This document shows, piece by piece, positions 20,934 to 41,701 of a stretch of DNA of 64,000 nt. Source of the DNA: Terriglobia bacterium. Its GTDB lineage: Bacteria > Acidobacteriota > Terriglobia > 20CM-2-55-15. Location of the stretch: NCBI GenBank assembly GCA_965218585.1, contig CBDCLE010000024.1:128001-192000 (forward strand), in the 5' to 3' direction. Each line of letters opens with the position of its first letter. The first letter of the stretch is position 1. The notes beneath the pieces were generated by a model. That model was not told the DNA's origin and ran no database searches. It saw nothing but the letters and a program-made list of their open reading frames with translations. Position numbers and translations under genes: made by a program.

Positions 20934-21036
20934 GTCTCTAATGAGTCGCCGTGAGGAACGGCAGAAATCGGCTAAGTCTATCGAGGTGGAAGCGTTGTTG
21001 GCAAGGGGACGGTCAACCGCCTCGTTTTGGCGAATT

Positions 21037-21072
21037 CTCAACGTCCGGGAAGACGATTTCTCAGGCCTTGAC
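21037..21072 (+). repeat. Cassette-boundary palindrome, site 1
   Basis: CTCA-ACGTCCGGGAA-GACGAT-TTCTCAGGCCT-TGAC. Confidence 0.85.
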
Positions 21073-21135
21073 TCGGGGAATTATTGAGTCGGCACCCGTT
21101 CCTTAGAGCACGTGTCTAAGTACGCAGGCCCATAG

Positions 21136-22603
21136 TACTACTGTGTTACAAAAGGCCTATTTTATGTTAGCATCCGGTCATGAGCGCCAAATCGAAGGCG
21201 CCAGGCACTCAGGAAAAACGTTTTGCGGCCTATTTGGAACGCCTGGCGTCGGCCGCAGGACACGCCGATCGTCATGAACCGTTGAAGTCGTACTGCACCG
21301 GGTTGTTGCTGCCGATCAAACGTAAGAGTGTGGAGCCGATGGCTGCACGATTGGCTCCGGATAATGTACGCCGAATGCACCAGTCGCTACATCATCTGGT
21401 CGCGGATGCGCCCTGGGACGATGCGGCTCTGTTGGCAGAAGTTCGACAGTACGCGCTGGGGGCGATGGAAGCCAACGGTCCGATTGAAGCCTGGATTGTC
21501 GACGACACCGGATTCGTGAAAAAGGGGACCCACTCGGTGGGTGTGGCCCGGCAATACTGTGGACAGGTCGGCAAACCTGAGAACTGCCGGGTGGCGGTGA
21601 GCCTGTCGGTGGCGACAGCGAAATCCAGCTTGCCGGTGGCATGGCGACTCTACCTCCCCGAGACCTGGGCGAAGGATCCGGAACGTCGAAGCAAAGCCGC
21701 TATTCCCGAAGACGTTCGATTTCAAACTAAACCTCAAATTGCTTTGGAACAAATCCGGCAGGCCGTCGATGACGGCATTGCTCCGACACCGGTTCTGGGC
21801 GATACGGCCTACGGCAACAACTACAAGTTCCGGCACGGCATCACCGAACTCGGACTTAGCTACGTCCTAGGGGTGCAAGGCACCACGACCGTGTGGAAAC
21901 CGGGCCAGGGTCCCTTGCCGCCGAAATCCTTGACCGGCCGCGGACGGACACCGACCCGCATGCAGCGCAACAAGAAACATCAACCGGTTTCGGTCAAGCA
22001 ACTGGCCCTCTCGTTGTCTCCCCAGCGTTGGAAGAACGTCTCCTGGCGCGAAGGCACCTCCGAGACCCTGCGTTCCCGTTTCGCCGCAGTTCGCATTCGT
22101 CCCGCTCATCTGGATCACGAGCGCCACTCGCCGCATCCGAAAGAGTGGTTGTTGGTCGAGTGGCCCAAGACCGCATCCGAACCGATCCGGTACTGGCTCT
22201 CCACTCTTGGGGCCCATACCTCGCTTTCCGATCTGGCCGGTCAGGCCAAACAGCGCTGGATCATCGAACGCGACTATCAGGAACTCAAGCAGGAACTCGG
22301 TCTGGGACACTACGAAGGTCGCGGCTGGCGTGGATTTCACCATCATGGCACCTTATGTATTGCCTCTTATGGGTTCCTGGTCGCCGAGCGGAGCCGTTTT
22401 TCCCCCTCTGCATTTGTCGAGCATGTTGGACTATCCGTCCCCAAACTCCCCAAACACTTCAAACCCCGCGGAACCCCGGATCCGGCCCGAACGACATAAC
22501 CCCTGCTCGATTGCCACGCTTCGCATTCGCATCGCCCGCTTCCTGATTCAGCAGCTTCCTCGTTGTCCGTTCTGTGGACCGCTTCGTTTGTAACACAGTA
22601 GTA
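21136..22603 (+). mobile_element. IS701-family element
   Basis: Perfect 17-bp TIR TACTACTGTGTTACAAA; 4-bp TSD ATAG. Confidence 0.93.
21180..22499 (+). CDS. IS701-family transposase
   Basis: RKSVEPMA, DDTGFVKKG.HSVGVARQYCG..GK..NC, RWIIE..YQELKQELGL. Confidence 0.95.
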   Translation: MSAKSKAPGTQEKRFAAYLERLASAAGHADRHEPLKSYCTGLLLPIKRKSVEPMAARLAPDNVRRMHQSLHHLVADAPWDDAALLAEVRQYALGAMEANGPIEAWIVDDTGFVKKGTHSVGVARQYCGQVGKPENCRVAVSLSVATAKSSLPVAWRLYLPETWAKDPERRSKAAIPEDVRFQTKPQIALEQIRQAVDDGIAPTPVLGDTAYGNNYKFRHGITELGLSYVLGVQGTTTVWKPGQGPLPPKSLTGRGRTPTRMQRNKKHQPVSVKQLALSLSPQRWKNVSWREGTSETLRSRFAAVRIRPAHLDHERHSPHPKEWLLVEWPKTASEPIRYWLSTLGAHTSLSDLAGQAKQRWIIERDYQELKQELGLGHYEGRGWRGFHHHGTLCIASYGFLVAERSRFSPSAFVEHVGLSVPKLPKHFKPRGTPDPARTT

Positions 22604-22708
22604 ATAGACGATGCATAGAAAGGTGAGCGACATCAGTTATTCTGAGCTGATTGGCTTTACACACAGCTAACCTTAAGATTACTTTTGGCTCGACAAGGAG
22701 GGAAAGAC

Positions 22709-23133
22709 ATGGCGATTACGTTGCCGGAATCTGTGAAGAAAATCCTACAAGAGCAGATCCACGGGCACATTATTACGTTCAATCCGAAGGGAACGCTACA
22801 GGTCACGTTGGTCTGGCTGGATGTCGATGGGAATGATGTGGTTTTCAATACAGCCGAGGGACGGATCAAACCCAGGAATCTCCGTAACACCCGAGCATAG
22901 TTATCAGCGCCCAGGACCCGAACAACCCCCGCTCTTACATGGTGTTCTATGGCAAGGCAACTGTCAGTGAGGCCGGCGCCGACGAACACATCGACAAGCT
23001 CGCGAAGAAGTTCATGGGTGTTGACAAGTACCCGTTTCGCAAGCCAGACGAGACGCGACTGATCGTGCGAACTGCAGTCGACCGGATAGGCGGCCACGAC
23101 GACACGATGACGCCCTGGCAGAGTAGTCACTGA
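22709..23133 (+). pseudogene. PPOX-class F420-dependent oxidoreductase, frameshifted near 22900
   Basis: QVTLVWLDVDG..VVFNTAEGR.K..NL in one frame; ADEHIDKLAKKFMGVDKYP..R in another. Confidence 0.82.
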
Positions 23134-23180
23134 GCCACCCCAAGCAGTCTAGACGCCGGCGTTTTAGGCGGAAATGAAAC

Positions 23181-23216
23181 GTCAAGGTCCGAGAAGATGA
23201 TTTCTCAGGACTTGAC
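23181..23216 (+). repeat. Cassette-boundary palindrome, site 2
   Basis: GTCA-AGGTCCGAGAA-GATGAT-TTCTCAGGACT-TGAC; followed by minus-strand KERVPVP* stub (23225-23248). Confidence 0.88.
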
Positions 23217-23287
23217 CTCGGAAATCACGGCACGGGCACCCGTTCCTTCGGTGCATCGTTTTGTTAGGCACGTGATGTCTCTTGGAG

Positions 23288-23428
23288 ATGAGCGAAGAGA
23301 ACGCTGAAAAGGCGATTTCGCAGTTCAATGGAAAGGAACTGGATGGCCGGGAACTAACAGTGAACGAAGCCCGACCTCAAACCAATCGCAACAGTGGCGG
23401 AGGTGGCCGAGGCGGAGGACGCTACTAG
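23288..23428 (+). pseudogene. RRM RNA-binding protein, C-terminal half only
   Basis: MSEENAEKAISQFNGKELDGRELTVNEARP..GGGGRGGGRY*; RNP2/RNP1 region absent. Confidence 0.82.
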
Positions 23429-23595
23429 GGGTTCCGCCTAGCGAAAGAGGCAGGGGGGCTGCTTGTTCTACGTGCACCCGTCCCTGCCGCTCACGGATCG
23501 AACGACGAAAGCGATAAAACTCGCTTCCAAACTATCTAAAGTCTCTAACGAAGCGTCATTCGCCTGCTAAACCCGATTGACGTTCTGATGTTTCC

Positions 23596-23811
23596 ATGCG
23601 CCTTACGCGATCTTCGAAATCGATCGACAAACGATGGTATCTGAGCGTGGTCTGCCGGAAGTGCCGATCCGCAATATCATTCGGACTGGATCAGTCCGAA
23701 GGTAAAGGCATCTTACCGCCGATCGGGAAACTTGTGCTCACATGCGGTGAATGCGGCCATCATGCCGCCTATGACTCGACGAAGGTCTCCCGTAGCCAGA
23801 AGATGCTTTGA
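23596..23811 (+). CDS. Small Zn-ribbon hypothetical protein
   Basis: CRKC and CGEC pairs, 71 aa. Confidence 0.55.
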   Translation: MRLTRSSKSIDKRWYLSVVCRKCRSAISFGLDQSEGKGILPPIGKLVLTCGECGHHAAYDSTKVSRSQKML

Positions 23812-23871
23812 CGTTGGCTACTCTATTTCTCCCGCTGCCCGACTTGCTTGGCAAGGCAGGATCGTTGGGAG

Positions 23872-23907
23872 GTCAACGTCCGACAAGATGATTTATCAGG
23901 ACCTGAG
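23872..23907 (+). repeat. Cassette-boundary palindrome, site 3
   Basis: GTCA-ACGTCCGACAA-GATGAT-TTATCAGGACC-TGAG. Confidence 0.9.
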
Positions 23908-23985
23908 AGTCATTTTTAATGCAGAAGCTGATCCACTTGCCTTTGCAAACTATAAAACGAGGCAGAGAAATGCGCGACGATGTAC

Positions 23986-25704
23986 CTATTGACACACCTC
24001 TTCACTACTTCTCGGAAACCACTCGCCATACGTATCGGCATTGGCACAAGTGATCACGCTGTTGTCTGAGTAGACGATCTTGCCATCCATTATCGTGAGT
24101 ACGGATTTCACATCGCGTAAGTTTCCCAGGTCTTCCATCCCAAAAACATCGTCGGAGAGGACAGCCACATCTGCCAGTTTGCCCTCTTCGATAGACCCCA
24201 GATTTTCCTCATCAAACGAGAACCATGCGTTGTTTATCGTCATCCATCGAATCGCTTCTTCGACGGTCAGAACGTCTTCAAATACTACGGTACCGGTATC
24301 ATCCAGGCCCGTCGTGACGTGATATATCCCGAGCCAAGGGTTAATAATGGCCACGTTGCCACCATCTGATCCCAGGCCAGAATGTACATCGTGTTCGAAC
24401 AAAGCCTTGAAAGGGGGTGGGGCGATGGGCCCTTCGGATGAATACGAGAAGTAAGCCGCGACAGCTCCACCACCGAGAGCTTCGAGCCGGTCCATACTTG
24501 TCGTGGTCAATAGAGGGACATGAGCCAGGTGCCAACGCAGGGCCGTCAGATCTTCGCTTGACGATTCAAAGGCCGTTAAATAACCATCGCTTTCCAACGG
24601 CGACAACGTGTGCTGAAACACAGTTGCGCCGAGACTTGCCGCGAGATTGATCTTAGGGATGTAAGTTTCTTCGTTGACAACGTCCTCTACTGCTGTCGGG
24701 AATCTAACACCCCCACCGTCGATAAATTCGCCGATCGCGTAATTGCGGTACATTGCGTCTCTAGACGTATCGTTGAGGGTGGTGATTTCATTTTCGAGCG
24801 CTTCCAGGCTTGCGCCGCCATATAAACCTCGAACACGCATAACGGCGCCGTTGTCGGCAATCCGCTGAACTTCTGTGCCTCCGTCCGACAGTGACATGGT
24901 CATACCGAGGCTCGCCGCCCAGGCCTGAACACCGAGAACTCCGTCGACTCTATCCTCTTCGGTTTGCTCAGAGCGTAACTGTTGAGCGGCGATGCTGTTA
25001 AAGAAGGCACGGTTGTTCGTGCCCGAGCCAATGTCGACCACACCATCATCGGAAACAGGCAATCCATGAGCGCGGAAGTAATCAATGCCCGTTGAATTGG
25101 TCTGAGTGCCGCCAGTGAATGTGGATTCAAGATAAATCGGATGGTCGAATTGATTCAGCGTCTCAAAGCTTGGTAATGCACCCTCGACAAATTGCCCCGG
25201 GGTAATGGCACCGATTACGGTGACAAAATTGTTCTGTGTACCGACAGTTCCCGCCTCGGGTAGAGGAATATTCTCTACTGTGATCTGTTTCTGCAGGAGG
25301 ACTACCGCCTCATCCCATGATCTTGCGGAATCCATGGCATATACCATGTGCCCCGGCTTGAGGCCGCGTCCGATAACGTGGCTGTGGTTGTCAATGAGCC
25401 CAGGTATTGCCGTACGTCCTGAAAGATCGATTCTGCAATCGCCGTCGACACCAAGTGTCTCTTCATCGCCGTTACTCAAGCCTGCGACGAGATTGTTCTG
25501 TAACCGAACAGACGAGACGACGCTATTGTCGGCATCCATGGTGTGAATCACGCCGTTATAAAGCACTTTTCCGGAGGCTTCGCTGCAAACATCTGCCCAT
25601 CGAACGCCTGCGCCGACGTCCGGGTCGTTACAGGCGCTTGCAGCGAATGAAATAACTACGGCAAAAGCAAACTTGATTGATATTCGGTTGTTTTTCTTGT
25701 TCAC
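23986..25704 (-). CDS. Amidohydrolase-3 family lipoprotein
   Basis: Lipobox ASAC; PGLIDNHSH, GSDG, GSIEEGKLADVAVL. Confidence 0.88.
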   Translation of the reverse strand: MNKKNNRISIKFAFAVVISFAASACNDPDVGAGVRWADVCSEASGKVLYNGVIHTMDADNSVVSSVRLQNNLVAGLSNGDEETLGVDGDCRIDLSGRTAIPGLIDNHSHVIGRGLKPGHMVYAMDSARSWDEAVVLLQKQITVENIPLPEAGTVGTQNNFVTVIGAITPGQFVEGALPSFETLNQFDHPIYLESTFTGGTQTNSTGIDYFRAHGLPVSDDGVVDIGSGTNNRAFFNSIAAQQLRSEQTEEDRVDGVLGVQAWAASLGMTMSLSDGGTEVQRIADNGAVMRVRGLYGGASLEALENEITTLNDTSRDAMYRNYAIGEFIDGGGVRFPTAVEDVVNEETYIPKINLAASLGATVFQHTLSPLESDGYLTAFESSSEDLTALRWHLAHVPLLTTTSMDRLEALGGGAVAAYFSYSSEGPIAPPPFKALFEHDVHSGLGSDGGNVAIINPWLGIYHVTTGLDDTGTVVFEDVLTVEEAIRWMTINNAWFSFDEENLGSIEEGKLADVAVLSDDVFGMEDLGNLRDVKSVLTIMDGKIVYSDNSVITCANADTYGEWFPRSSEEVCQ

Positions 25705-25850
25705 AATCTCCCCCTATGGTGCTTGCGTTTAGGAGGCCCAAGATCTCGTAGTGGCCGAGTTTGGTGCCAGATTCCATCGTTATGGTGTGTCGCTGAAGAA
25801 ACCGTGAAAAACTCGGTAAAGGATACTAAGGGAGGGGTTTGTAAGCAATC
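25705..25850 (-). pseudogene. Ser/Thr kinase promoter plus N-terminal stub (MESGTKLGHYEILGLL, ATG at 25777)
   Basis: ~90 bp closely similar to 41299-41390; candidate promoter TTGCTT-N17-TATCCT. Confidence 0.82.
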
Positions 25851-25863
25851 AGAAGGTCAACGC

Positions 25864-27228
25864 GAGGTCATTACAAAAGGTGTGTAAAAGTCATCAGGCG
25901 GCGGCCTTCGATTTCATCACGACTCTGATGCCGTCAGCGAATTGCTGACCATCATAGACCTCTTGTAAGAGTTCGGATCCTTTTAAGTGTCGCCAAGCCT
26001 TCTCAGCGACACGTAGTAGCTTCCAGATCATTGCCGTTGCATTCTCGACACGCTTGAATCGGCGAGCGGCGTTGGTGCGGAGGCGAACCATGTCGAAAGG
26101 CGATTCGACGATGTTGGTTGTTCTCAGATGCACCCAGTGTTGTTTCGGGAACTCATAGAAAGTAATCATCCGGTCCCAGTCCCGCAACAGCGTCTCACCC
26201 GCTTTGGGATAGTTCTTCTCATATCGGCGGACGAACTGATCCCGCTTTCGTTCGCAGGCCGCGCGGGAGTTCGCGAAGGCCATCCCATGAAGCAGCTGTC
26301 TGGCCGCGGGCTGCTCGGTCTTCGGCAGATGATCGACCACGTTGATCGACTTGTGGTTCCAGCAGCGTTGTTCCTGGCCCTGGGGCTGTTGCTCGGCCAG
26401 CGCGGACCAGATGCCCAGGTGACCGTCCGCGACAGTCAGCCGTCCCAGCTTCAGGCCCCGTCTCTGGAGATTGCGCAGAATGCGGCTCCAGGACTCCTTG
26501 CTTTCCCGCTGCCCGCTCTCACAGGCCAACACCACTTTGCGCCCGTCTGACAAGGCTCCGATGATCACCAGCAATGCCGCTCGCTCTTTCGCGATCCCCG
26601 CTTTCACGTACAAGCCGTCTGCCCACTGGTACACGACCTCGAGGCCGGACAGGTCCTGCTGGACCCACTCGTCATACTCCAACTGCCAGGTCGATTTCAG
26701 TCGTTGGATCGATGCTCGCGACAACGGAGCGCCAGCGCCAAGCAGTCCGCGCATGGCCTGCTCGAAGTCCCCTGTGGCCAGACCGTGGAGGTAGAGATCG
26801 GGAAGTAGCTCGCCCAGCTGTTTCGATTTCCGTCGAAAATACGGCAGGATCTGACTCTCGAACCGCTCGGCGGTGTTTCGAACCCGAGGTCGTCGAACCT
26901 CCATCGTACCGTTCATCATTGCGAAGCGTCGCGGCTTCCCGTGACCGTTCCGGTATCCTCGTCGATTCGGACTCCGCTCCAACTTTTCCCGACCCAGAAA
27001 TTGAGTGACTTCGTCCTCGAGCAGCTCCTGTAGCCAGACTTGGACCCGGGATCGCGCCCAGTCCTCCAAACCTTCATACGCGTTCGTTGACGCCACTGAT
27101 GCCGGTATGTTCTTCTTCTTCATGGGTGGTGTACCTTTCTCCCGATTGCTGCCGGGATTGCTTACGGTTTCGAATTCACCGAAAGCGTACACCGCCTTCT
27201 CTTTTTACACACCGATTGGAACGACCTC
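25864..27228 (-). mobile_element. IS256-family element type A, copy 1 (1365 bp)
   Basis: TIRs GAGGTCATTACAAAAGGTGTGTAAAA / GAGGTCGTTCCAATCGGTGTGTAAAA; 8-bp TSD GTCAACGC. Confidence 0.95.
25894..27123 (-). CDS. IS256-family transposase (type A)
   Basis: YRNG, WADGLY, ADG, QRCWNHK, RTTNIVES; likely start MKKKN. Confidence 0.95.
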   Translation of the reverse strand: MKKKNIPASVASTNAYEGLEDWARSRVQVWLQELLEDEVTQFLGREKLERSPNRRGYRNGHGKPRRFAMMNGTMEVRRPRVRNTAERFESQILPYFRRKSKQLGELLPDLYLHGLATGDFEQAMRGLLGAGAPLSRASIQRLKSTWQLEYDEWVQQDLSGLEVVYQWADGLYVKAGIAKERAALLVIIGALSDGRKVVLACESGQRESKESWSRILRNLQRRGLKLGRLTVADGHLGIWSALAEQQPQGQEQRCWNHKSINVVDHLPKTEQPAARQLLHGMAFANSRAACERKRDQFVRRYEKNYPKAGETLLRDWDRMITFYEFPKQHWVHLRTTNIVESPFDMVRLRTNAARRFKRVENATAMIWKLLRVAEKAWRHLKGSELLQEVYDGQQFADGIRVVMKSKAAA

Positions 27229-27253
27229 GTCAACGCTCGAATTTAGGCCAATT

Positions 27254-27289
27254 CTCAACGTCCGACAAGATGATTTAACAGGACTTGAC
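27254..27289 (+). repeat. Cassette-boundary palindrome, site 4
   Basis: CTCA-ACGTCCGACAA-GATGAT-TTAACAGGACT-TGAC; followed by minus-strand LKELVRLP* stub (27298-27324). Confidence 0.92.
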
Positions 27290-27357
27290 CGGGAAGCTTA
27301 AGGTAGCCGCACCAGTTCCTTAAGTCGCGTTTGGTACGCGGACACCCGGGCGCGATA

Positions 27358-28179
27358 ATGATGGAAGTGCTGGACCTATCGGAAACGCTCGCTCAGGAGC
27401 TGGAACGCCCGCGGAAGATTTCCGCTCAGGTTGCTCGCCATCTGGTGGCAAATTACGGCATCGCCGACGATGAGACCGGCCCATTTCTCGTCCAGACGCT
27501 GCCTACGCTCGAGGAGGATGAAATCGACCTGATCCTGTCGCCCTTGTTCACGCCGAAGCTCGCCGACCAAGCCGTGTTCGCCGGTCGGCTCGGCAGGCAG
27601 TCGATCCCGTCGGATGAGCTGGTTCGCCTGGTTGTTCAGGTGGTTGCCCGCCCCACAGACGCCAGCCTTGCCGGGATGGACGACCAAAACCATCGGGTCA
27701 GGCTTGGCGAGGTGACCGTGGAGCGTTACGTGTATCGCCTTCGGCTGGAAGCAACGATTCCAGAGGCAACATTTGAGCTCATCCAGCGGCATCCGTCCGG
27801 CGACTACCCACTTTTTCAGGCCGTCGCGCGCCGCGCAACCTGGGAGGGGGACGGCCGGTCCGGAATCCTCAGAGGTTACCTGATGGCAACGGCAGGTATC
27901 GAGGCTTGGGGCGCGGCCGAGGTGCGCTCCCTGCTCGATCTGGTGGACCGCTACAAGCCCATCGACATCGCCGATCTGGTAGCGAAGATTCCCAGATGGC
28001 AGGAAGGATTGCGAAGTGATCTTAGCTTGGCTTCGGGACGAAAGCCGTTTTTCAGCGAAGGGATCGAACACTCTCACGGTGGAGAGCGCGACCATCGTTC
28101 ACCAGAGGGCGCTCTGATCGAGGCGAAGAGGCGGGAACTGAGTTTTCTCGAACGCCTCGAGTTACTTCTAGTGCACTGA
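27358..28179 (+). CDS. Hypothetical protein (cassette cargo)
   Basis: 273-aa protein-like ORF filling the interval between sites 4 and 5. Confidence 0.72.
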   Translation: MMEVLDLSETLAQELERPRKISAQVARHLVANYGIADDETGPFLVQTLPTLEEDEIDLILSPLFTPKLADQAVFAGRLGRQSIPSDELVRLVVQVVARPTDASLAGMDDQNHRVRLGEVTVERYVYRLRLEATIPEATFELIQRHPSGDYPLFQAVARRATWEGDGRSGILRGYLMATAGIEAWGAAEVRSLLDLVDRYKPIDIADLVAKIPRWQEGLRSDLSLASGRKPFFSEGIEHSHGGERDHRSPEGALIEAKRRELSFLERLELLLVH

Positions 28180-28208
28180 TCCGGTAACAGGACTTATCGT
28201 TCCGCGGC

Positions 28209-28244
28209 GTCGAGGTCCGCGAAGATGATTTATCGGGACCTGAG
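28209..28244 (+). repeat. Cassette-boundary palindrome, site 5
   Basis: GTCG-AGGTCCGCGAA-GATGAT-TTATCGGGACC-TGAG then AATCGTTTTCATGGTC, similar to the site 6 flank. Confidence 0.88.
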
Positions 28245-28266
28245 AATCGTTTTCATGGTCATCTAG

Positions 28267-30209: not shown

Positions 30210-32614
<2,405 letters not shown>

Positions 32615-32983: not shown

Positions 32984-33049
32984 AATCATTTTCATGGTCG
33001 TTTAGGGAACCGCCGAGTTATTGTCAAAAGTGGTGTTTTGCCGATTGAC

Positions 33050-34297
33050 TCAAGCGGCGGCCTGATCGACGTGGGTCACTTCGATTCCATCGTTGAATTT
33101 CACTCCAGTAATCACCTTGGGCAGATCATCGAATCCTCGTAATCGTCGCCAGTTCTTTTGAGCGCACTGTCCCAGTTTGAACATCATGTGCAGCATGCCA
33201 ACCCGCGTCAGGCAACCCCTGGATCGCTTGGTTCGGTGGCGAATGGTAGCAAAAGTCGACTCAATGGGATTGGTCGTTCGGATGCTCTGCCAGTGCTTGG
33301 CCGGGAAGTTGAAGAAGGCCAGCAGTTCTTCTTTGTCTTTCTGGAGGCAGCGAGTGGCTTTCGGATACTTCGGCTCATAGGTTTCAATGAACAGATCGAA
33401 TGCCTTCTCGGCGTCTGCCTGTGTCTGAGCCCGCCAGATCGCGTGCAAAGCCTGTTTCGCCTTCGCCTGGGCCGACTTCGGGAGCCCGTTCAGTACGTTC
33501 ATGGTCTTGTGCATCCAGCAACGTTGGTGACGTGTCTCGGGATAGATTTCCTCCAGTGCGGCCCAGAATCCCATCGCACCGTCTCCGATGGCCAACTTCG
33601 GGATATTCATCCCACGCGACTTCAGCTTTAACAAGACCTCGCGCCAACTCTGTGTCGATTCCCGGACACCGTCTTCGATTGCCAGAAAACGTTTCTCTCC
33701 GCGTTGATTCGCGCCGATCACCACCAGTGCGCACAACTTGGTTTCTTCGGCCCGCAGTCCGCTGTAGATACCGTCGGCCCAGACATAGACCCAGCGATCG
33801 GCATCCAATCGCTCCTCGCATCCCCGGCGGTACTGCTCGGCCCAGACCTGTTTCAACCGCGATACCGTGCTCGCCGACAGGCCCTGCGCCTGGGGTCCGA
33901 CAAGAACTTTTAGAGCGTCACCCATCTCGCCGCTGGAGACGCCTTTCAAATACAACCACGGCACCGCTGCTTCCAGCGATTTCGTTTTCCGAATGTAGGG
34001 AGGTACCAGGGCCGACCGGAACGTTACCGGGTCGCCAGTCTTCGCTCGGACTTTCGGGATCTGGACCGTTACCGGCCCCAAACCGGTCTGCAGTTCACGT
34101 TCAGGCAGATAACCGTTGCGCACCACCCCGGCGTTGCCCGTCTCGGTTCTCCGATCGCCGTGGTGGGATAGCAGTTCCGCCAATTCGGTTTCCACCGCGC
34201 GTTGGATCAGTTGCTGAGCTCCAACTCGTAGTAGCTCTGTTATCGGATCCTCAATCGTCTCTCGACCCTCCGGTCCATTCACGTTACTCTTGCTCAT
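33050..34297 (-). CDS. IS256-family transposase (type B)
   Basis: VRNGY, WADGIY, GDGAMGFW, QRCWMHK, RTTNPIES. Confidence 0.95.
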   Translation of the reverse strand: MSKSNVNGPEGRETIEDPITELLRVGAQQLIQRAVETELAELLSHHGDRRTETGNAGVVRNGYLPERELQTGLGPVTVQIPKVRAKTGDPVTFRSALVPPYIRKTKSLEAAVPWLYLKGVSSGEMGDALKVLVGPQAQGLSASTVSRLKQVWAEQYRRGCEERLDADRWVYVWADGIYSGLRAEETKLCALVVIGANQRGEKRFLAIEDGVRESTQSWREVLLKLKSRGMNIPKLAIGDGAMGFWAALEEIYPETRHQRCWMHKTMNVLNGLPKSAQAKAKQALHAIWRAQTQADAEKAFDLFIETYEPKYPKATRCLQKDKEELLAFFNFPAKHWQSIRTTNPIESTFATIRHRTKRSRGCLTRVGMLHMMFKLGQCAQKNWRRLRGFDDLPKVITGVKFNDGIEVTHVDQAAA

Positions 34298-34355
34298 AGT
34301 GGCGTATCTCCCTTGGTTGCTTTGAAGTCTGGTAAACAACAAATCAACCAGATAG

Positions 34356-35720
34356 GAGGTCATTACAAAAGGTGTGTAAAAGTCATCAGGCGGCGGCCTT
34401 CGATTTCATCACGACTCTGATGCCGTCAGCGAATTGCTGACCATCATAGACCTCTTGTAAGAGTTCGGATCCTTTTAAGTGTCGCCAAGCCTTCTCAGCG
34501 ACACGTAGTAGCTTCCAGATCATTGCCGTTGCATTCTCGACACGCTTGAATCGGCGAGCGGCGTTGGTGCGGAGGCGAACCATGTCGAAGGGCGATTCGA
34601 CGATGTTGGTTGTTCTCAGATGCACCCAGTGTTGTTTCGGGAACTCATAGAAAGTAATCATCCGGTCCCAGTCCCGCAACAGCGTCTCACCCGCTTTGGG
34701 ATAGTTCTTCTCATATCGGCGGACGAACTGATCCCGCTTTCGTTCGCAGGCCGCGCGGGAGTTCGCGAAGGCCATCCCATGAAGCAGCTGTCTGGCCGCG
34801 GGCTGCTCGGTCTTCGGCAGATGATCGACCACGTTGATCGACTTGTGGTTCCAGCAGCGTTGTTCCTGGCCCTGGGGCTGTTGCTCGGCCAGCGCGGACC
34901 AGATGCCCAGGTGACCGTCCGCGACAGTCAGCCGTCCCAGCTTCAGGCCCCGTCTCTGGAGATTGCGCAGAATGCGGCTCCAGGACTCCTTGCTTTCCCG
35001 CTGCCCGCTCTCACAGGCCAACAGCACTTTGCGCCCGTCTGACAAGGCTCCGATGATCACCAGCAATGCCGCTCGCTCTTTCGCGATCCCCGCTTTCACG
35101 TACAAGCCGTCTGCCCACTGGTACACGACCTCGAGGCCGGACAGGTCCTGCTGGACCCACTCGTCATACTCCAACTGCCAGATCGATTTCAGTCGTTGGA
35201 TCGATGCTCGCGACAACGGAGCGCCAGCGCCAAGCAGTCCGCGCATGGCCTGCTCGAAGTCCCCTGTGGCCAGGCCGTGGAGGTAGAGATCGGGAAGTAG
35301 CTCGCCCAGCTGTTTCGATTTCCGTCGAAAATACGGCAGGATCTGACTCTCGAACCGCTCGGCGGTGTTTCGAACCCGAGGTCGTCGAACCTCCATCGTA
35401 CCGTTCATCATTGCGAAGCGTCGCGGTTTCCCGTGACCGTTCCGGTATCCTCGTCGATTCGGACTCCGCTCCGACTTTTCCCGACCCAGAAATTGAGTGA
35501 CTTCGTCCTCGAGCAGCTCCTGTAGCCAGACTTGGACCCGGGATCGCGCCCAGTCCTCCAAACCTTCATACGCGTTCGTTGACGCCACTGATGCCGGTAT
35601 GTTCTTCTTCTTCATGGGTGGTGTACCTTTCTCCCGATTGCTGCCGGGATTGCTTACGGTTTCGAATTCACCGAAAGCGTACACCGCCTTCTCTTTTTAC
35701 ACACCGATTGGAACGACCTC
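34356..35720 (-). mobile_element. IS256-family element type A, copy 2 (nested)
   Basis: Same TIRs as copy 1; duplicated ACCAGATA; transposase 34386-35615. Confidence 0.95.
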
Positions 35721-35774
35721 ACCAGATACGCCGCTCTTCCTCAATCCCTCAAACACCAGATTCGGTTATAACTC

Positions 35775-35869: not shown

Positions 35870-38566
35870 GTAACTAGTATTTCTTCCGGGATTCGATCTT
35901 CGCTAATTTAACAGCTCGTGGCAAACCTGTGCCCCGTTTGCATGCAGGAGTACGGTTGTCAGCCCACCCAGCGTCAATGGCTCCTACCGCCTCGGCGACA
36001 ATGTGACGTCACGCCTCTTCCGGCGTTCCGTTGAAGGCAACCAACGTCATACACCTCAAGCAGCACCCCTCGGGACATCTCGAAGAACCAACTCCTCAAG
36101 AAAAGATCTTAGAAACGATGGGTGTAAACCAACTTGGACGCAAGTTGGCGATCGAAAGTGCTGAGCCCGTCCAGGGGGTCGCTGAGCCAGTTGTGGTTGT
36201 ACACCAGATACAGGTCGTTGCCTGGATTCAGAATCCAGCGGAATCGGGCCTGCCATCCCAGGTTCCGGCTGTCGTTGTCGTACTGGATGATGTCGGCGAA
36301 CGAAATCCAGGGGCTGAACTGAGCGTTCACTTCCCCTCTTAAGGTACTGACCGAGAAGCTGCCCTGAGGCAGTTCGATACGGGTCCATTGGTTGTCCAGG
36401 CCGATGGAGAGCCCGCTGCGTGGCCGGATGGTCAAACGGGGCCCGAAATCGCGGCGCGTTCCGCTGAAGTAATCGCCCCATCTGAACCGTCCGCCGAAAG
36501 AGACGGGCCGCTGGCTACTCGTGTTCCAGAAGGCATCATAGCTGTTGTACCGGTACTGGGTTCCTGCCGGCAGGATCACAGAACCGTTCGGTCCCATCCT
36601 GAAGTCACTCTGAAGCCTCTCGAACTCCCGGAAGATACCGAAACCGAAGAAATCGCCGGTATGAAAGGTCATCTGGAACAGGTCGAAAACGAGCGACTGC
36701 GACAACATAACGTTTCGGCTGTCGTCGGTCTGGTTGAAGCCCACGCTCCATTGGAACTGTCGGATCAGGGGGTGGTTTTCCGGGCGGGGCGAGAGGCGAA
36801 GGAAACTATCGTATTGTTTGATACCCGTCCGGTTGACGAAACCCACGGCCGGATCGAAATTGGCCTGCGTCTCCGTGAAGCCGACCCGCCATCCCACGAG
36901 ATCGTTGTTGGAATTCACCGACGTCCCGTAGCGCGCGCTATTCCCGGTATCGTCCGGATTCGTCGTTGTTACGTAGTGCGAGGTGAGTGAGAGGTTCTTG
37001 TCACCCATGAAGCGCCGCGTGGTCAAGTTAACATCGAATCCCAGCGTCTGCAGTGCGGGTCCAATCGACGCCGGGTCCGCTATCTGGTCTTCACGCGTGC
37101 TTCGCCGTGTGTAGAGCATGCCAAAGTGGGATTCTGTTAGGATGCGGCGCGCACCTCTGAAAACCGTGAAATCCTCCCCAGGCCGAACGCCGTCTTCCCC
37201 AGTACGTACCTGCAGGATACCAATGTCCTGAGCACCGGCCTGCCCGGTCAGCTTGACCCCGTAGTCGACCCTCTGGGGTTGTCCCTCTGTCAGTCCGATC
37301 CGTCGGCTGAAGAACGCGTCACCGAAACCGGACATAGAAAAGAAGTTACTTCCCTCCAGGAAAAAGTTCCGCTTTTCAGGGAATCGAAGAGAAAATCGGG
37401 TCAGGTTGACCTGGCGGTCGTCCACCTCGGTTTCCGCAAAGTCTGTGTTGACCGTGAAGTTGGCCCTGAGGCTGGGCGTCACGTTGTAGATAAAATCGAC
37501 CCCACTGTCTCCTGTATAGGAGGCGTCTGTCCTGTTCCCCGGCGAGGATCGGGCTCGCCCCGTCGCGTAGGGTCTCACATCCAAACCGATGCCCTGACTG
37601 ATTTCCGACATGCCTACGATCAAGCCGGCATTGGACATCCTCCGCAGGCCTCCGCTGGTGCGCCCGAAACCGTTCCAAATGGTTTCCTCGTTCTTTCGCC
37701 GTACTGTTCGTTGGAAATTGATTCCCCACGCCTGCGCGTTCGGATCAAAGTTCAGCGTGCGGAACGGCATTTCGACTTCGATGACCCACCCGATCTCGCT
37801 CCGGCGAACCTCCGCGTCCCAGATTCCGTCCCAGGCGCCGCCTCCACCTCCGCCGAACCCGCCTCCACCTCCACCAGGGAAACCGCCACCTCCACCAGGG
37901 AATCCTCCGCCTCCGAAGAATCCTCCTCCACTGACGAGTTGGTCGCCCATGGCTCCGGAAGGATTCATCTCGAAGAAATACCCGGTCCGTTCGTCCAGGT
38001 AGGTGTCGAAGACCCACATGAATCGGTCGTCGGCGTCCAGGAAGGCATCCCGCTGCATGGTGTTTCCCATGAGCTGGTCGGGTTCGGAGTCGTAGAGGAT
38101 TACCCCCATGTACATATTGTTGTCATTGAAGAGGATGTACACCTCGGTGGGCTCGGTCGCCGCGGCTCCGTTGTCCGGGTCGATCTGGATGAACTCTGTC
38201 GCCGGTTCGGCCCGGCCCCACGAGATTTCATCCAGGCGGCCATCGAGGTTGATGCTTTCGCCCGGCTGGAGTCGCGAGGCGGCCATGACCCGGCGGTCTT
38301 CGAAGCCGTCGAGGCCTTCTTGCGCCTGGACCTGTGATGTTGTCTGTCCGAGAAACACAAGAGTCGCTTTGACAACGTAAAAAGAGCCCACCCCGATCGA
38401 GTAAAAAGGACCCACCCCCCGGGTTAATGGTTTGTAAGTAAATCCGCCGTCGGGGTTGCGGGAAGTGTGGAAGCCGAAAGCTTCCAAGCCGCGGTGGTAA
38501 CGCGCCGGCTTTGCAGCGGGTTTCCACGGTGGCGACACTTTCCACAGCCGCTCGCTCGCGTGTGTT

Positions 38567-39358
38567 TCACGCGGAACCTTGGGCGGACCGGGGTTTCTTC
38601 TTCCGCTTGCCCGCGGCACCGAGACTCTCGGTGAAGCGGATACTTTCCCAATCGAACTGATGAATCGCACAGTGATGGGTCAATCGGTCCAGCAGGGCCG
38701 CGGTCAGGGCGGCATCGCCGAACACGCTGGTCCACTGCGCAAACGGCAGGTTCGACGTCACGATGAGGGAACCCTTTTCGTACCGGTCCGAGAAGACCTG
38801 AAACAGCAACTGGGCGCCCTCGGCCGAGAACGGGATATAGCCGACCTCGTCGACGATGAGCAGCTCGAAGCGGGACAACTTCGCCAGTTGCCGCTTCAAC
38901 TGTCGCTCCTCACGGGACTCGATCAGCGTATTGACCCGCCCCGCGGCCGTGGTGAACCCGACGCGGTAGCCCCTCCGGCAGGCTTCCACGCCCAGCACCG
39001 TCGCGGCGTGGGTCTTGCCGGTGCCGTGCTTGCCCAACAGCACGACGTTCTCGCACCGGGTGATGGTGTCGCACTCGGCATAGTCGCGCACCTGGACCGC
39101 ATCCAGTGCCGGCCACTTGTTCAGGTCGGTCGTTTCCAGGGTTTTCAACCGTGGGAACCGGGCCGTGCGCAACCGGCGCTGGATCTGATTGGCTTGCCGC
39201 TGTTCCAACTCGCGACTGGCCAGAGCCAGCAGAAAGCCGGGGTACCCCTCGCCGGCTTCCTTGGCCTGCCGGCCGTATTCCCGCCAGGCACGGACCATGG
39301 CCGGCAACCGGAGCTGCCGCAATGCGTCGTCCAGGACCACCTCCTGTCCCGGAGTCAT
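38567..39358 (-). CDS. istB: IS21 helper ATPase
   Basis: GKHGTGKTH, LLIVDEVGY, TSNLPF..W, LDRLTHH. Confidence 0.95.
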   Translation of the reverse strand: MTPGQEVVLDDALRQLRLPAMVRAWREYGRQAKEAGEGYPGFLLALASRELEQRQANQIQRRLRTARFPRLKTLETTDLNKWPALDAVQVRDYAECDTITRCENVVLLGKHGTGKTHAATVLGVEACRRGYRVGFTTAAGRVNTLIESREERQLKRQLAKLSRFELLIVDEVGYIPFSAEGAQLLFQVFSDRYEKGSLIVTSNLPFAQWTSVFGDAALTAALLDRLTHHCAIHQFDWESIRFTESLGAAGKRKKKPRSAQGSA

Positions 39359-40884
39359 CGCACACCTCCAGCCAACAGGTCGTATCGATTCAGATCGGTT
39401 CCGGCAATCGCCCGGTCCGTGATCCCGGGCATCAGTCCGGACTCGAGCGGGGCATGGGATCGGGCGGGTGCGTCCTCCCGCATCAGAATGTGCCGCACCG
39501 CTTCCAGTTCGACGCAGTGGGCATCGAGCGCATCCTGGACGGCGGCCGACACCCGGCCCAGATCCCAGTTCTGGTGGAGTTGCAGGATGCTGATGAACTC
39601 CCGGGTGCCCCGGCTGTACCCATGCCGGTCCCGCAACCGCTCCAGCACCGTCTCGTAATGGGCCGGCCACTGGGGCCGCCACTGCCGGATCGGGCGGGCA
39701 CTCTCAAACGAGGCCACCTTCCGCCGGATCAACTCCAGGTAGTGCAACGGATCGGTCCGCCAGTCGCTATGACCGAAGGCGCGGGCATGTTCGGCCACCT
39801 TCTTCTGGTCCGCGTAAAAGCTCACCCGGTCACAGCCGATATGGGCCCAGAGCCGGCGTCCCACATACGCGGTCGGCACCGAGTAGCGGTTCGAATCCAC
39901 CTGGGCGGTCTGGTACCGGCTGATCCGCACGCCCACCACCTTCGTGTTTTCGAATGGCGTCTCGGGCAGCGCCAACAGGCGCTCTTTCTCGACCGCGTGC
40001 CGTTCCCCGATCGTGCGGGCGTCGGCCCGGCCGCCGATCCGGCGCTGCTCGTCGGTCGCGCAGCGTTCCAGCAGCTGCGCGTTCAGTTCCTCGAAGTCGG
40101 CCACCTCGGGAACCGGCACCAGGAAATTCCGGCGTGCGAAACCGACCAGACCCTCGACACCACCTTTCTCCTGGCCCCGGGCCGGATTACAGAACCGCGC
40201 TTCAAAGGTGTAGTGGGCTCGTAACGCCGTGAACCGGTCCTGCTCGATCCGGGCCTTCCCCCTCAGAATCCGCCTCACAGCTGTCTTCAGGTTATCGAAG
40301 ACCACGGCCGGGAATACGCCGCCGTACCAGCCGAACGCCCGGATGTGACCGTCCAGGAACATCGCCTGCCGTTCCCGCGGATACGCCCGCACGAACGACT
40401 TGCCCGAGTACCGGCTCCGCATGCAGAACAGTTTGACCTGAACGTCTTCACCCTTCATCCGGACCCAGCCCGTCCCCCAGTCCACTTCCGCTTCCCGCGC
40501 CTGTTCCGGATCCAGCGGCACCACCGCCCCCGGCCGGTGCCAGCCCAAACGCATCTTCCGCTCCCGTACCCATCGCCGCACCGTCGGCTCGGCTCCGGTG
40601 AACCCATGTTCATCGACCAGGCGCCGCCATACCCGGTGCGCCGTGTGCCGCTGCTTGACCGGCTGCTCCCGATCGGCCCGCAGCCAGCCCTCCACGATCC
40701 CGGCCACCGGGTCCATCACCGGACAGGCCGGCTCCTTCTCCCGCCGATACTTCGGCTCCTGGCCGGCCAATACTTTCCGGACCGTCCGTCTCGTGTGCCC
40801 GGTCTCCCGGGCGATCTGTCGAATGCTTTTCTTGTAAACTCGATGTGCGGTCCTGACCATCTCGTACTGATCCATCCCTAACAA
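39355..40884 (-). CDS. istA: IS21 transposase
   Basis: HTH, VDWG, FDNLKTAV, EKGGVE, NRYSVP. Confidence 0.95.
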   Translation of the reverse strand: MLGMDQYEMVRTAHRVYKKSIRQIARETGHTRRTVRKVLAGQEPKYRREKEPACPVMDPVAGIVEGWLRADREQPVKQRHTAHRVWRRLVDEHGFTGAEPTVRRWVRERKMRLGWHRPGAVVPLDPEQAREAEVDWGTGWVRMKGEDVQVKLFCMRSRYSGKSFVRAYPRERQAMFLDGHIRAFGWYGGVFPAVVFDNLKTAVRRILRGKARIEQDRFTALRAHYTFEARFCNPARGQEKGGVEGLVGFARRNFLVPVPEVADFEELNAQLLERCATDEQRRIGGRADARTIGERHAVEKERLLALPETPFENTKVVGVRISRYQTAQVDSNRYSVPTAYVGRRLWAHIGCDRVSFYADQKKVAEHARAFGHSDWRTDPLHYLELIRRKVASFESARPIRQWRPQWPAHYETVLERLRDRHGYSRGTREFISILQLHQNWDLGRVSAAVQDALDAHCVELEAVRHILMREDAPARSHAPLESGLMPGITDRAIAGTDLNRYDLLAGGVR

Positions 40885-41231
40885 CTCCTTATCCTCCCTC
40901 CGCCATGCCGGTTCATCCAGGCACTCGCCGGGGGAGGCTATCAGGGTGGGTCCTTTTTCCTCGATCAGAACCCCGTTTGGTGGGTCCTTTTTACGTTATC
41001 GAAATCACAAGAGTAAGGAAGAACAGCAGCGGAGCTGTCGGTAGGATTCTTTTCATATCGAGCTAGTAGTCCTCTAAGTCAAACGGTTACCGGAGGCGTA
41101 ATCACATCCCGCGATTGGACGTTCCGGACTGATCGGGGTGAGCAACTCAATTTCTCGGGCGTCAAAGAAACCAGATCATCCTCATCTCAGGTTCGATTCG
41201 AAGAGCGTTCTAAGCTGACGGACGAAGACAC

Positions 41232-41407
41232 TCATTCGATGTTGGCTACTTCACGGGCACGCCTCACCTCTCCCATTCCACCTTTCCCATGCGGCTGAGA
41301 ATCTCGTAATGGCCGAGTTTGGTGCCAGATTCCATGTTCAAGTGTGTCGCTGAAAAAACCGAGAGAAACTCGGTAAAAGATACTAGAGGAGAGAGTTAGT
41401 TGGCATC
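41232..41407 (-). pseudogene. Ser/Thr kinase promoter plus N-terminal stub (MESGTKLGHYEILS../GKGGMGEVRRAR, frameshifted)
   Basis: ATG at 41335; Gly-rich loop GKGGMGEV; homologous to 25742-25832. Confidence 0.88.
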
Positions 41408-41412
41408 CAATT

Positions 41413-41448
41413 CTCAACGCTTGTTAAACGACATTGTCGGACGTTGAG
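41413..41448 (-). repeat. Cassette-boundary palindrome, site 7 (inverted, different spacer)
   Basis: Minus strand: CTCA-ACGTCCGACAA-TGTCGT-TTAACAAGCGT-TGAG. Confidence 0.85.
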
Positions 41449-41701
41449 AATCGCACGGCTCAATCCTGATGCCTTCAGTCCATGTTTTCTTACAGTTGGG
41501 CGCGAATTAGGGCAGGCGTGCATAACGACGTGTAAAATCCGGGCTCGGCTACGGCTAGAATGCACCTGTGACGTTATGCAATGACGTCGCAGAGAAAAGG
41601 AAGGCTCTTGAACCACAGGGGCTCGATTTTCTGAATGATTCTCAAGTCGCGGGTTCGAATCTCTCGCGCCACAATCGTTGATTACAAACGCACTTGACAC
41701 A

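Follow-up and report, generated by a model that had tools for sequence, protein, structure and literature searches.

Several systems have been described in which short repeated sites border genes or small gene modules. In the dif modules of Acinetobacter plasmids, pdif (XerC/XerD) sites made of two short arms around 6 bp border small accessory-gene modules that are shuffled between replicons and contain no recombinase, and some insertion sequences (IS) insert specifically at these sites (PMC13141974, PMC10132070, PMC6449649). In CALINs, co-oriented arrays of diverse single genes are split by one conserved imperfect palindrome, the attC site, and an integrase without cassettes (In0) together with distant CALINs is a known layout (10.1101/2025.06.18.660453). 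REP/BIME palindromes and the clustered dRS3 (CGTC-1) repeats of Neisseria are extragenic palindromes of 20-45 nt, genus-specific and very variable in copy number, which form head-to-head dimers and clusters and are targeted by IS; the CGTC class is described as lacking a dedicated transposase (PMC3733652). The repeats that we describe here resemble all three systems in these respects. They were found in a 64,000-nt stretch of DNA (the window) and, in contrast with the Acinetobacter modules, they are chromosomal, lie in tRNA-side islands of an acidobacterium, are mostly direct and reach 70 to >160 copies per genome. The seven copies of the window are members of a genus-specific family of ~42-bp repeats, orientation-bearing and dyad-symmetric, which are junctions between small gene modules in variable genomic islands and act like hot spots of DNA exchange and IS insertion. 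We propose, with a probability of roughly 0.4, that they represent a recombination joint used in trans, probably by a tyrosine recombinase, a REP-like selfish palindrome being nearly as likely.

The first-pass annotation had reported seven palindromes in the window, and both their number and their places stand. When the window was searched with a 17-nt core, allowing up to 3 mismatches, nine matches were obtained against 0.15 expected, and none of 100 shuffles reached nine. Six of them are direct copies (cores at 21043, 23187, 23878, 27260, 28215, and 32954), and the matches at 33895 and 48462 fall within two copies of an IS256-like element. The match at 60121 is unrelated. The seventh copy, which is inverted, escaped the core search and has diverged, but it is real (nhmmer E=2e-5). 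According to the 45-nt nhmmer model, S1 occupies 21031-21075 of the plus strand (core 21043-21067; C24 149031+, E=4.8e-10), and S2 (23175-23219), S3 (23866-23910), S4 (27248-27292, with the exact family core), S5 (28203-28247), and S6 (32942-32986, with a perfect 9-bp outer inverted repeat), all on the plus strand, were found by both the core search and nhmmer. S7 (41410-41454, minus strand) is inverted and belongs to a variant, "type C", whose centre differs (AATGTCGT), and an inverted repeat formed by S6 and S7 (32945-32986 / 41410-41451) is 86% complementary. All seven are located outside Pfam-supported genes, S1 only touching the TTG start of an ORF call, and the four reported combinations of left and right flanks are all seen.

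These sites lie in a variable island (18554-41745) inserted beside a tRNA gene (18478-18551). At the same tRNA locus of congener G003 the island is absent, and ~131 nt without any site separate the tRNA from the GNAT-side flank. Seven IS copies are carried by the island: an 820-bp IS with a DDE_Tnp_1 transposase directly after the tRNA (18595-19420, plus strand; 32 copies with 97-98% identity among the matches listed in G003), an IS701-type element with a DDE_5 transposase (21133-22607, plus strand; many genome copies with about 99.5% identity), an IS256-family copy with a Mutator transposase, assigned by Pfam and copy boundaries (25864-27228, minus strand), a further copy of it (34356-35721, minus strand; another stands at 56963-58328), an IS with a DDE_Tnp_1_4 transposase (28263-30007, minus strand; second copy at 8234-9978), a second IS256-like element with a Mutator transposase (33015-34355, minus strand, right end approximate; its other copy starts at 47582), and an IS21-family copy with IstA-like and IstB ORFs (38363-41007, minus strand; several genome copies). 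Some of these IS genes had been mistaken for ordinary genes. The PPOX gene assigned to the S1-S2 interval was not found, and this interval contains the IS701-type transposase and a 157-aa ORF without a Pfam match. In S2-S3, where RRM and Zn-ribbon genes had been listed, the translations read as a truncated RRM-like ORF, cut off by S2, and a CxxC...CxxC ORF. The amidohydrolase of S3-S4 (23986-25704, minus strand, its stop 75 nt from S3) is correct, but the interval also holds the first IS256 copy, which ends at 27228 and breaks the left-flank module of S4. Similarly, katG is present in S5-S6 together with the DDE_Tnp_1_4 element, which starts 16 nt rightward of S5, and S6-S7 contains DUF5916, with no ankyrin call, plus two IS256-type copies, the first starting at 33015 beside S6, and the IS21 copy. 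The supposed 20-kb cassette island is an IS-rich tRNA-side island and not a clean cassette array; its sites do mark module junctions.

The family is genus-wide and clustered and is not special to this island. An nhmmer search of this genome (G000) returned 109 rows at E<=1, 70 of them with E<1e-6; 57 of these 70 strong copies have a neighbour within 5 kb (14% expected at random). Of the adjacent pairs up to 5 kb apart, 35 of 43 in this genome and 59 of 64 in congener G001 (280 kb of fetched loci) consist of sites in the same orientation, and the median module spacing is 1.5-2.1 kb. The five genomes of the genus contain 69, 166, 121, 12, and 8 pattern matches, and 20 genomes from 10 further genera of the family contain 0-2 each. 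Furthermore, genes that are neighbours in an array (PCMT, glyoxalase, cysteine-dioxygenase-like, and metallo-beta-lactamase-fold) have their orthologues scattered in G001 and G003, which together with the co-orientation supports the earlier claim that the sites divide gene modules. As for an enzyme, the genome encodes XerC and XerD, both over the NCBIfam cut-offs, and nine other Phage_integrase ORFs, none of these 11 within about 14 kb of an array.

Many sites stand at the 5' and 3' ends of genes that belong to a single Ser/Thr-kinase/PD40 family, other genera included, which is another difference from the Acinetobacter modules. The repeat could be a cis element of this gene family (an operator, insulator, or 3'-end element) multiplied passively by gene duplication, the arrays being decayed tandem kinase clusters with other genes inserted. 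The kinase gene at L014 has a type C site upstream of it and an inverted site downstream, and 10 of the 16 kinase-type C-terminal tails in the genome adjoin a site (for nine, a site of nhmmer E<0.01 no more than 120 nt away; for the tenth, C6 1109, an abutting partial match that is weak, E=0.014). In many right flanks only a short piece of the kinase tail is left, as is seen beside S1 (about 21076-21105) and S2 (about 23220-23250); after the IS that follows S5 the tail picks up again at 30007-30093, a remnant of the 5' region adjoins S7 (41251-41409), and lone sites in other genera adjoin the same gene ends. However, the sites are about 85-100% identical whereas the kinase tails of most paralogues share 44-77% amino-acid identity, and many unrelated genes are bordered by sites too. 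Moreover, just 2 of 68 copies supply a promoter -35 box, terminator and promoter scans pick up none of the six sites in 20900-33100, and orthologous copies are not conserved, all of which makes a cis element unlikely.

The architecture of the site was studied on 126 unique canonical copies from three genomes, with the consensus AATTCTCAAC-GTCCG-NN-AAGATGATTT-NN-C-A-GGAC-TTGA. Conservation of the asymmetric centre AAGATGATTT amounts to 90-100%. Conserved blocks surround it symmetrically, and the two dinucleotides that vary most occupy mirror positions on its two sides. At the 17 possible stem pairs the Watson-Crick share lies within 4 points of the independent-column expectation, and within 1 point at 12 of them, indicating that hairpin pairing is not kept by compensatory change. 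Judged from the sequences, this pattern agrees with a site that a protein binds as duplex DNA. Where the spacer is another one (GATCGT or TGTCGT; GGGGAT), each class of sites has its own right arm and the common left arm, and at least four kinds of IS insert in the site centre.

A tentative reading of the same family is that the 42-bp unit is a selfish or structural extragenic palindrome like REP/BIME or dRS3, spread or kept uniform through the action of a transposase or through ectopic gene conversion, in which case module shuffling would be a by-product of homology or replication-slippage exchange among near-identical 40-bp copies. Size, palindromy, and extragenic location, often just past stop codons, agree with it, as do the genus-specific sequence with a 20-fold spread in copy number, the decay of single copies, the insertion of several IS families in the centre, and the head-to-head dimers 10-20 nt apart (five places in G000 and six in the G001 loci). 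The median fold z is -2.4 over the 126 copies; only three of the seven window copies fold better than shuffles. The site also contains CGTC, the tag of a REP class that is described as one that lacks a dedicated transposase, occurs mostly as head-to-head dimers, is clustered in Neisseria, and has an 8-9 bp stem starting with A-T pairs and a 4-5 nt loop (PMC3733652). This stem/loop geometry is not found here, and the loop is invariant and asymmetric, the most conserved part of the site, which is the opposite of REP families, with no compensatory changes keeping the stem. In addition, no RAYT is flanked by the repeats, and the copies border whole genes and are concentrated in islands, instead of being spread over core intergenic regions.

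Exchange at the sites is suggested by their linkage to the flanks. Positions of the right arm show linkage among themselves and with the right-flank family (z 3.6 to 13.9). For the left flank, position 11 is the only one linked (z 3.0), and between the two arms linkage is slight or absent (z about 2.2 or lower). The flank-to-site linkage breaks mid-site, which, like the conservation pattern, fits an arm-spacer-arm recombination site; that it does not decay evenly speaks, at low power, against a REP-like repeat. Recent duplications end at sites as well. In G001, L055 9297-10623 equals L058 763-2089 with 99.3% identity, a single DUF6152 module reaching from one site to the next between unrelated neighbours on both sides, and L057 1-4165 equals L067 5635-1471, ending 9 nt past a site. 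The switch points of recent duplicates are not one nucleotide and are spread across the whole site, as a REP-like repeat would have it. Among 19 site pairs with one flank at least 93% identical and the other <45%, 12 share the right flank only (8 of them copies of centre-inserted IS) and 7 the left only. Two copies whose left flanks are 99% identical are already mismatched at positions 11 and 18; two others, with 99% identity in the right flank, have five mismatches within the site, of which the rightmost falls in the outer TTGA of the right arm. Furthermore, a 1.4-kb amidohydrolase segment (96.8% identity) has opposite orientations relative to the flanking sites in two arrays, its homology breaking off 19-220 nt before the sites. 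Between orthologues, the sites have changed faster than their flanks (~9/34 differences against about 8% at the PCMT locus, and 5 site differences against 4% in the flank for C1 111471 and G001), and behind a kinase gene at C23 9018 there is a copy that has decayed. The unfixed exchange points and the decay of orthologous copies weigh against a strict integron-like model, and a REP-like repeat explains much of this about as well. The proposed cassette array acted on in trans is partly supported, by co-oriented module junctions, duplications, and the linkage break, and is weakened by the exchange points, the faster divergence of orthologous sites, the many sites that border kinase-family genes, the IS-rich island, and the segment found in both orientations. 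The public data are assembled contigs, and such data cannot show circles or rare excision.

With regard to the recombinase, an integron integrase acting in trans on atypical, very short attC sites of CALIN-type clusters seems improbable to us. The enzyme would be the In0 IntI of the congeners, lost or unassembled in this genome, where no IntI exceeds the cut-off. Three of four congeners do encode an intact IntI (440-458 bits, cut-off 265) without cassettes beside it, the arrays are co-oriented with diverse small enzymes, and the site has a conserved unpaired A (T on the other strand) and ends, TCTCAAC ... GTTGAGA, which resemble the inverse core and core of attC (RYYYAAC / GTTRRRY). The repeats are also targeted by IS110-family elements, a family whose IS1111-attC group targets attC sites. 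However, attC sites are about 57-141 bp long, and 42-45 nt leave no room for separate R and L boxes and an unpaired spacer; the canonical attC architecture is absent, as the annotation had stated, and it is sequence and not structure that is conserved, with no covariation. Linkage to the right flank does not extend over the whole core (z 0.3-0.9 at positions 11, 17, and 18), which argues against a crossover at G|TT, since this needs such linkage. Moreover, none of the six IntI loci of the congeners (3 intact, 3 broken) has a site within 10 kb, G002 combines an intact IntI with only 12 sites whereas G000 has 69 sites and no IntI, and genes mostly start, not end, beside the invariant arm.

Host XerC and XerD could instead act on the repeats as accessory Xer sites, as proposed for the Acinetobacter plasmid dif modules, which likewise have no recombinase of their own and are targeted by specific IS. 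The 11-6-11 geometry, with AA and TT adjoining the spacer, would suit this, both proteins are present, and by manual count the arms share 7/11 (left) and 6/11 (right) bases with the dif candidate of the genome. But the right arm departs in its outer half (CAGGACT) from the XerD arm of the dif candidate (GTCAAGT) and the spacer differs too; the site is not dif, and the earlier statement that its right arm is not the XerD box agrees with this. In addition, pdif sites alternate in orientation whereas these are mostly direct repeats, and copy number varies 20-fold within the genus, XerC and XerD being confirmed in this genome and putative Xer-like hits being present in G001. We therefore hold Xer action on these repeats to be doubtful.

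Returning to the recombination joint, each repeat would be recognised as double-stranded DNA by a site-specific recombinase whose gene lies elsewhere and which is probably of the tyrosine type, and would consist of two ~13-14-bp arms around the asymmetric 6-bp spacer GATGAT. The sequences on the two sides of a site would be swapped within the mid-site, the strand-exchange point presumably lying there, and this by the recombinase rather than by homology. Such swaps could lead to modules being gained, lost, duplicated, and reshuffled between arrays, while consensus-like sites would arise anew and sites out of use would decay.

The 17-nt core of the repeat, allowing up to three mismatches, matched the window nine times against 0.15 matches expected, and none of 100 shuffled sequences reached nine. 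Six of these matches are the direct copies described in the first-pass annotation (S1 to S6), which are borne out by this search; two others lie within two copies of an IS256-like element and the last is unrelated. The seventh copy, reported there as inverted (S7, 41410..41454), is also real, though more diverged: 32945-32986 and 41410-41451 form an inverted repeat with 86% complementarity, and nhmmer recovered it at E=2e-5. The four combinations of left and right flanks that had been noted are all found among the window copies. When a profile was made from copies across the whole genome under study (G000, 4.55 Mb in 26 contigs, with the window at C24:128001-192000), and this and related genomes were scanned, as had been proposed, the family was found genome-wide and across the genus. 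There were 109 places in G000 at E<=1, 70 of them at E<1e-6. Of these 70 copies, 57 have a neighbour copy within 5 kb (random expectation 14%), 35 of 43 adjacent pairs point the same way, and neighbours are a median of 2.1 kb apart, IS included. Similarly, 280 kb fetched from the congener G001 contained 121 copies with a median spacing of 1.5 kb, and 59 of the 64 adjacent pairs were co-oriented.

A pattern search of 41 genomes, with the reversed pattern as control, gave 69, 166, 121, 12 and 8 matches in the five genomes of the genus, 0-2 per genome in 20 genomes from 10 other genera of the family, and 0-5 in 16 genomes from other families of the class, the control giving at most one match in any genome. 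The rare copies in other genera adjoin the same gene ends as in G000. Scanning a public species collection, which may not include close genomes, returned no stretch with the site; the best named relatives of a window protein belong to Acidobacteriota and Vicinamibacterales MAGs. In the main texts of the literature on attC and CALINs in Acidobacteria, on REP sequences as IS targets and on integrons of Vicinamibacteria, we found no description of this repeat.

The consensus of 126 unique canonical copies from three genomes is CCAATTCTCAAC GTCCG AG AAGATGATTT CT C A GGAC TTGAGAAT, an imperfect palindrome of 42-45 nt. Each of its ten central bases is shared by at least 90% of the copies, mostly by 100%, the least conserved positions are two dinucleotides placed symmetrically around the centre, and conservation drops to the right of TTGA and to the left of AATTC. 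Most of the 126 copies can be folded (median z -2.4). For all 17 candidate pairs, the share of Watson-Crick combinations stays within 4 points of what independent columns would give; at least seven of the eight outer pairs are kept in only 39 of 126 copies, and all five inner pairs in 37. With DNA folding parameters, only three of the seven window copies beat their shuffles, and an association between GAGAA and TTCTC that was apparent in G000 vanished in G001 and in the pooled set, so that covariation of a hairpin was discarded. Because an invariant asymmetric centre is combined with symmetric conserved blocks and no structural covariation, the pattern is what a site bound by protein as a double strand would look like, and, more specifically, it is like the core of a recombinase site, in which the spacers of the two partners have to agree. 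Five copies of G001 (L053 9860, L055 683, L055 14379, L061 14237 and L070 9655, all in loci fetched from this genome) have lost three centre bases, one GAT of GATGAT, in what looks like slippage, and are probably dead sites.

Along the columns of a 45-nt model of the site, right-arm positions show linkage with one another, with the outer right bases and with the right-flank family (z 3.6-13.9). For the right-flank families this linkage covers positions 30-44 and not 11, 17 or 18 (z 0.3-0.9), and for the left flank it is confined to position 11 (z 3.0), both at low power since only 45 and 68 sites fall within flank families. Positions of the left and right arms show little or no mutual linkage (z ~2.2 or lower), and site classes with other spacers have their own right arm and the common left arm. 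Furthermore, in G001 a 1.3-kb DUF6152 module is present, site to site, in two arrays at 99.3% identity with unrelated DNA on both outer sides, and a 4.2-kb duplication stops 9 nt past a site. Nineteen pairs have one flank at least 93% identical and the other unrelated (12 share the right only, 7 the left only); eight of the 12 right-sharing pairs are copies of an IS inserted at the centre. Contigs from Logan (runs X19, X20, X21 and X23) break at sites, and the joints listed connect look-alike sites of relatives, which speaks neither for circles nor against them. In our preferred mechanism, to which we give a probability of roughly 40%, DNA would be exchanged within the central part of the site by a site-specific recombinase acting in trans.

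The first-pass annotation had proposed testing whether module changes break exactly at the spacer; duplications do end at sites, but the switch point varies within the site. Where the left flanks of copies are 99% identical, differences are already present at positions 11 and 18, and where the right flanks are 99% identical, there are five site differences, of which the one furthest to the right falls in the outer TTGA of the right arm. In addition, two arrays of G000 carry a 1.4-kb amidohydrolase segment that points in opposite directions when measured against the flanking sites, and its homology ends 19-220 nt before them. The main rival explanation, which we would put forward only tentatively, is a REP-like repeat whose copies undergo homology-driven exchange. 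REP sequences have a terminal GTAG or CGTC tag, a stem of 5-13 bp, a loop of 2-20 nt and a short tail, and those of the CGTC class have a stem of 8-9 bp starting with A-T pairs and a loop of 4-5 nt (PMC3733652). The site contains CGTC (CAA-CGTC-CG), and the stem that comes after this is of 5-6 bp, bulged, and starts with C-G, with an invariant loop of 6 nt. A RAYT-linked REP was rejected: G000 has two Y1 (PF01797) genes, at C10:115435-116193 and C3:160188-160871, and neither is flanked by sites, the nearest lying ~1.8 kb off, across two genes. Orthologous sites diverge faster than their flanks and decayed copies also exist, so the family is kept uniform by renewal or homogenisation and not by selection at each locus.

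As candidate enzymes, G000 encodes XerC (343.5 bits) and XerD (378 bits), both over their cut-offs, together with nine other Phage_integrase ORFs. Resolvase domains gave seven hits over cut-off, a few of which are short fragments; none of the Xer, Phage_integrase or resolvase genes of G000 adjoins an array. The only match in G000 to the canonical dif pattern (XerC arm, 6-bp spacer, XerD arm), C10:37515 on the minus strand, shares the 11-6-11 geometry of the site, and a manual count showed the arms to agree at 7/11 and 6/11 positions (~60%). The right arm had been described as unlike the XerD box, and its outer half indeed differs from the XerD arm of this dif candidate; as the spacer differs too, membership of the dif/pdif class was rejected on sequence.

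An attC site is a folded single strand of ~57-141 bp with an R box, an unpaired spacer, an L box and extrahelical bases, in which structure is conserved over sequence. Its core site is cut and joined at G|TT, and a gene therefore moves together with the complete attC downstream of it. The first-pass annotation saw no attC structure, and our tests of that architecture agree: the site shares one conserved unpaired A with attC, and it is 42-45 nt long, lacks pairing covariation and keeps its outer pairs in few copies. Crossover at G|TT was also rejected, at low power, on the flank linkage (right flank unlinked to 11, 17 and 18, left flank linked to 11). The integrase points the same way for both attC and CALIN membership, as no IntI is over cut-off in G000 (TIGR02249, best 83.7 bits vs 265) and no site lies near the IntI loci of congeners. 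Three of the four congeners have an intact IntI (G001:C9:714608-715549, G003:C2:3040327-3041268 and G002:C41:5422451-5423395) and broken copies are present in G003 and G004, and none of these six loci (three intact, three broken) has a site within 10 kb. A scan for repeat arrays beside two of the intact genes (loci L030 and L031) found no attC-like arrays, a layout called In0 (10.1101/2025.06.18.660453).

An intrinsic terminator (a GC-rich stem before a T run) and a sigma-70 promoter (a -35 box with a -10 box at 16-18 nt) were rejected as well. The six sites in 20900-33100 are absent from the 10 terminator-like and 6 promoter-like hits there, and a -10 box stands 16-18 nt from the outer TTGAGA in only two of 68 copies, which speaks against a sigma-70 promoter. 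With Rfam 15, only three tRNAs reached the gathering score in the window, and no match at E<=1 overlapped a site in 20900-33100.

Relative to G003, the stretch 18554-41745 is an insertion directly after the tRNA at 18478-18551; in G003, ~131 nt separate this tRNA from the GNAT-side flank, with no site in between. The same locus holds other insertions in G002 and G004, of ~3.1 kb (upstream of the tRNA) and 4.8 kb, and in G001 the tRNA is split over two contigs, 50 nt of its 3' end being repeated. A solitary site at C10 113641 is likewise at the edge of a tRNA-side insertion. Comparison of empty and filled loci at two solitary sites gave no clean empty site, the matches for the one on C19 being repeats and paralogues only and the one on C10 being this other island border. 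At the right border of the island (41634-41673), a half-site-like stretch is fused to the apparent 3' end of a different tRNA. Beside the tRNA at 47229-47302, a C-terminal fragment of a phage-type integrase (47473-47610, minus strand; 22.4 bits, below cut-off) is apparently cut by an IS256-like copy starting at 47582, and this region looks like the remnant of another tRNA-side island.

Regarding the contents of the modules, the gene list of the first-pass annotation was correct only in part: its amidohydrolase, katG and DUF5916 genes were confirmed, several of the intervals also turned out to hold IS, and an RRM-like fragment and a CxxC ORF were seen in translations. A cleaner array at C2:94.8-111.7 kb has as modules unrelated small enzymes (two methyltransferases including PCMT, a glyoxalase, a cysteine-dioxygenase-like protein, a metallo-beta-lactamase fold, a sulfite oxidase and DUF4440), most of them on the strand opposite to the site as written, and their orthologues are dispersed over G001 and G003. 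The gene orientation (minus, minus) around a site was counted in 31 of 67 and 36 of 87 cases, only a tendency given the crude longest-ORF caller. Many right flanks are the 3' end, or a mere remnant, of a Ser/Thr-kinase/PD40 family ending in ...NWFEELKERVPVP, and the sites with a different centre (type C) lead into the 5' region and start of this family, so that a kinase gene has one site upstream of it and another, inverted, downstream. S7 belongs to type C and is followed by 160 nt left over from the kinase 5' region. A common break point for the kinase-tail remnants was rejected, as the break points are scattered in a comparison with imperfect anchoring. The segment 25705-25863 and the left flanks of many sites (such as C2 108667 and C25 187832 of G000) form a 100-150-nt upstream module, common to kinase genes and unrelated module genes (amidohydrolase, sulfite oxidase), which may be a portable promoter and leader.

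The IS of the window lie 16-58 nt beside sites and none within one. Between S1 and S2 there is an IS701-type element with a DDE_5 transposase (21133-22607), and the other site intervals hold IS256 copies at 25864-27228 and 34356-35721, an IS whose transposase is of the DDE_Tnp_1_4 type (28263-30007), another IS256-like element that starts at 33015 and an IS21 copy (38363-41007). Elsewhere, an IS30-family element (HTH_38 and rve) splits the site centre at 8 loci of G000. In the G001 loci the centre is likewise interrupted by two distinct IS110-family elements, at three places for each, and one of the two has done this in G000 and G003 too. G001 also has an IS91-family element, carrying an integrase gene, whose insertion point follows GATGATTT. 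We therefore rejected the sites as IS ends, since the IS that touch them cut them at the centre instead of ending there; nor are they terminal inverted repeats or MITEs, as they fall outside the multi-copy limits of the IS701, IS256, IS21 and DDE_Tnp_1_4 elements. The first impression that type C sites were IS21 ends was also dropped, because by BLAST the IS21 copy stops at 41007 and the conserved flank is the kinase 5' region. IS91-family elements pairing a tyrosine-integrase gene with a Y2 transposase (G001:C3:2990-5046, locus L035) are multi-copy in G001, G002 and G003, with ~25 copies in G002 and none in G000. Directly after the tRNA, an 820-bp IS (DDE_Tnp_1, 18595-19420) has 32 copies listed in G003 at 97-98% identity; as core genes of both genomes are ~80% identical, this suggests a recent IS exchange between the two species. 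A ~419-bp element (L009 2482-2900, C2:95482-95900 of G000) that recurs dozens of times, at 85-88% identity, across G001, G002 and G004 may be a MITE or small IS.

To our knowledge, there are just two well-known cases in which bacteria file single genes between short recombination sites, namely integrons and dif modules, the latter still unexplained, and both are known mainly from Proteobacteria. As the repeat lacks the defining features for which it was tested of attC, dif, REP sequences linked to RAYT, IS ends, terminators and promoters, it points to a new form of site-delimited gene modules, whose nearest functional likenesses are Acinetobacter dif modules, integron CALINs and clustered REP-type repeats (Neisseria dRS3). 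It is conceivable, if doubtful, that these are parts of a chromosomal gene-module exchange system of Vicinamibacteria-like Acidobacteriota, with its own 14-6-14 double-strand site, spacer classes as compatibility groups and a host tyrosine recombinase in trans (Xer or one of the nine orphan integrases), its arrays being built at tRNA-side islands and around the large Ser/Thr-kinase/PD40 family. Such a putative system would parallel integrons and Acinetobacter dif modules in function while using its own type of site. If the repeat is merely REP-like, such repeats can still structure whole islands, and this one would still be where elements of the IS30, IS110 and IS91 types mainly land in the lineage. 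It would add a third site type for gene modules, present in hundreds of copies in an acidobacterial genus of uncultured type, where each genome has more than 10 arrays and at least four kinds of IS have evolved to target the site. This makes it tractable to study, by comparison, the spread of such sites and the host enzyme that acts on them.
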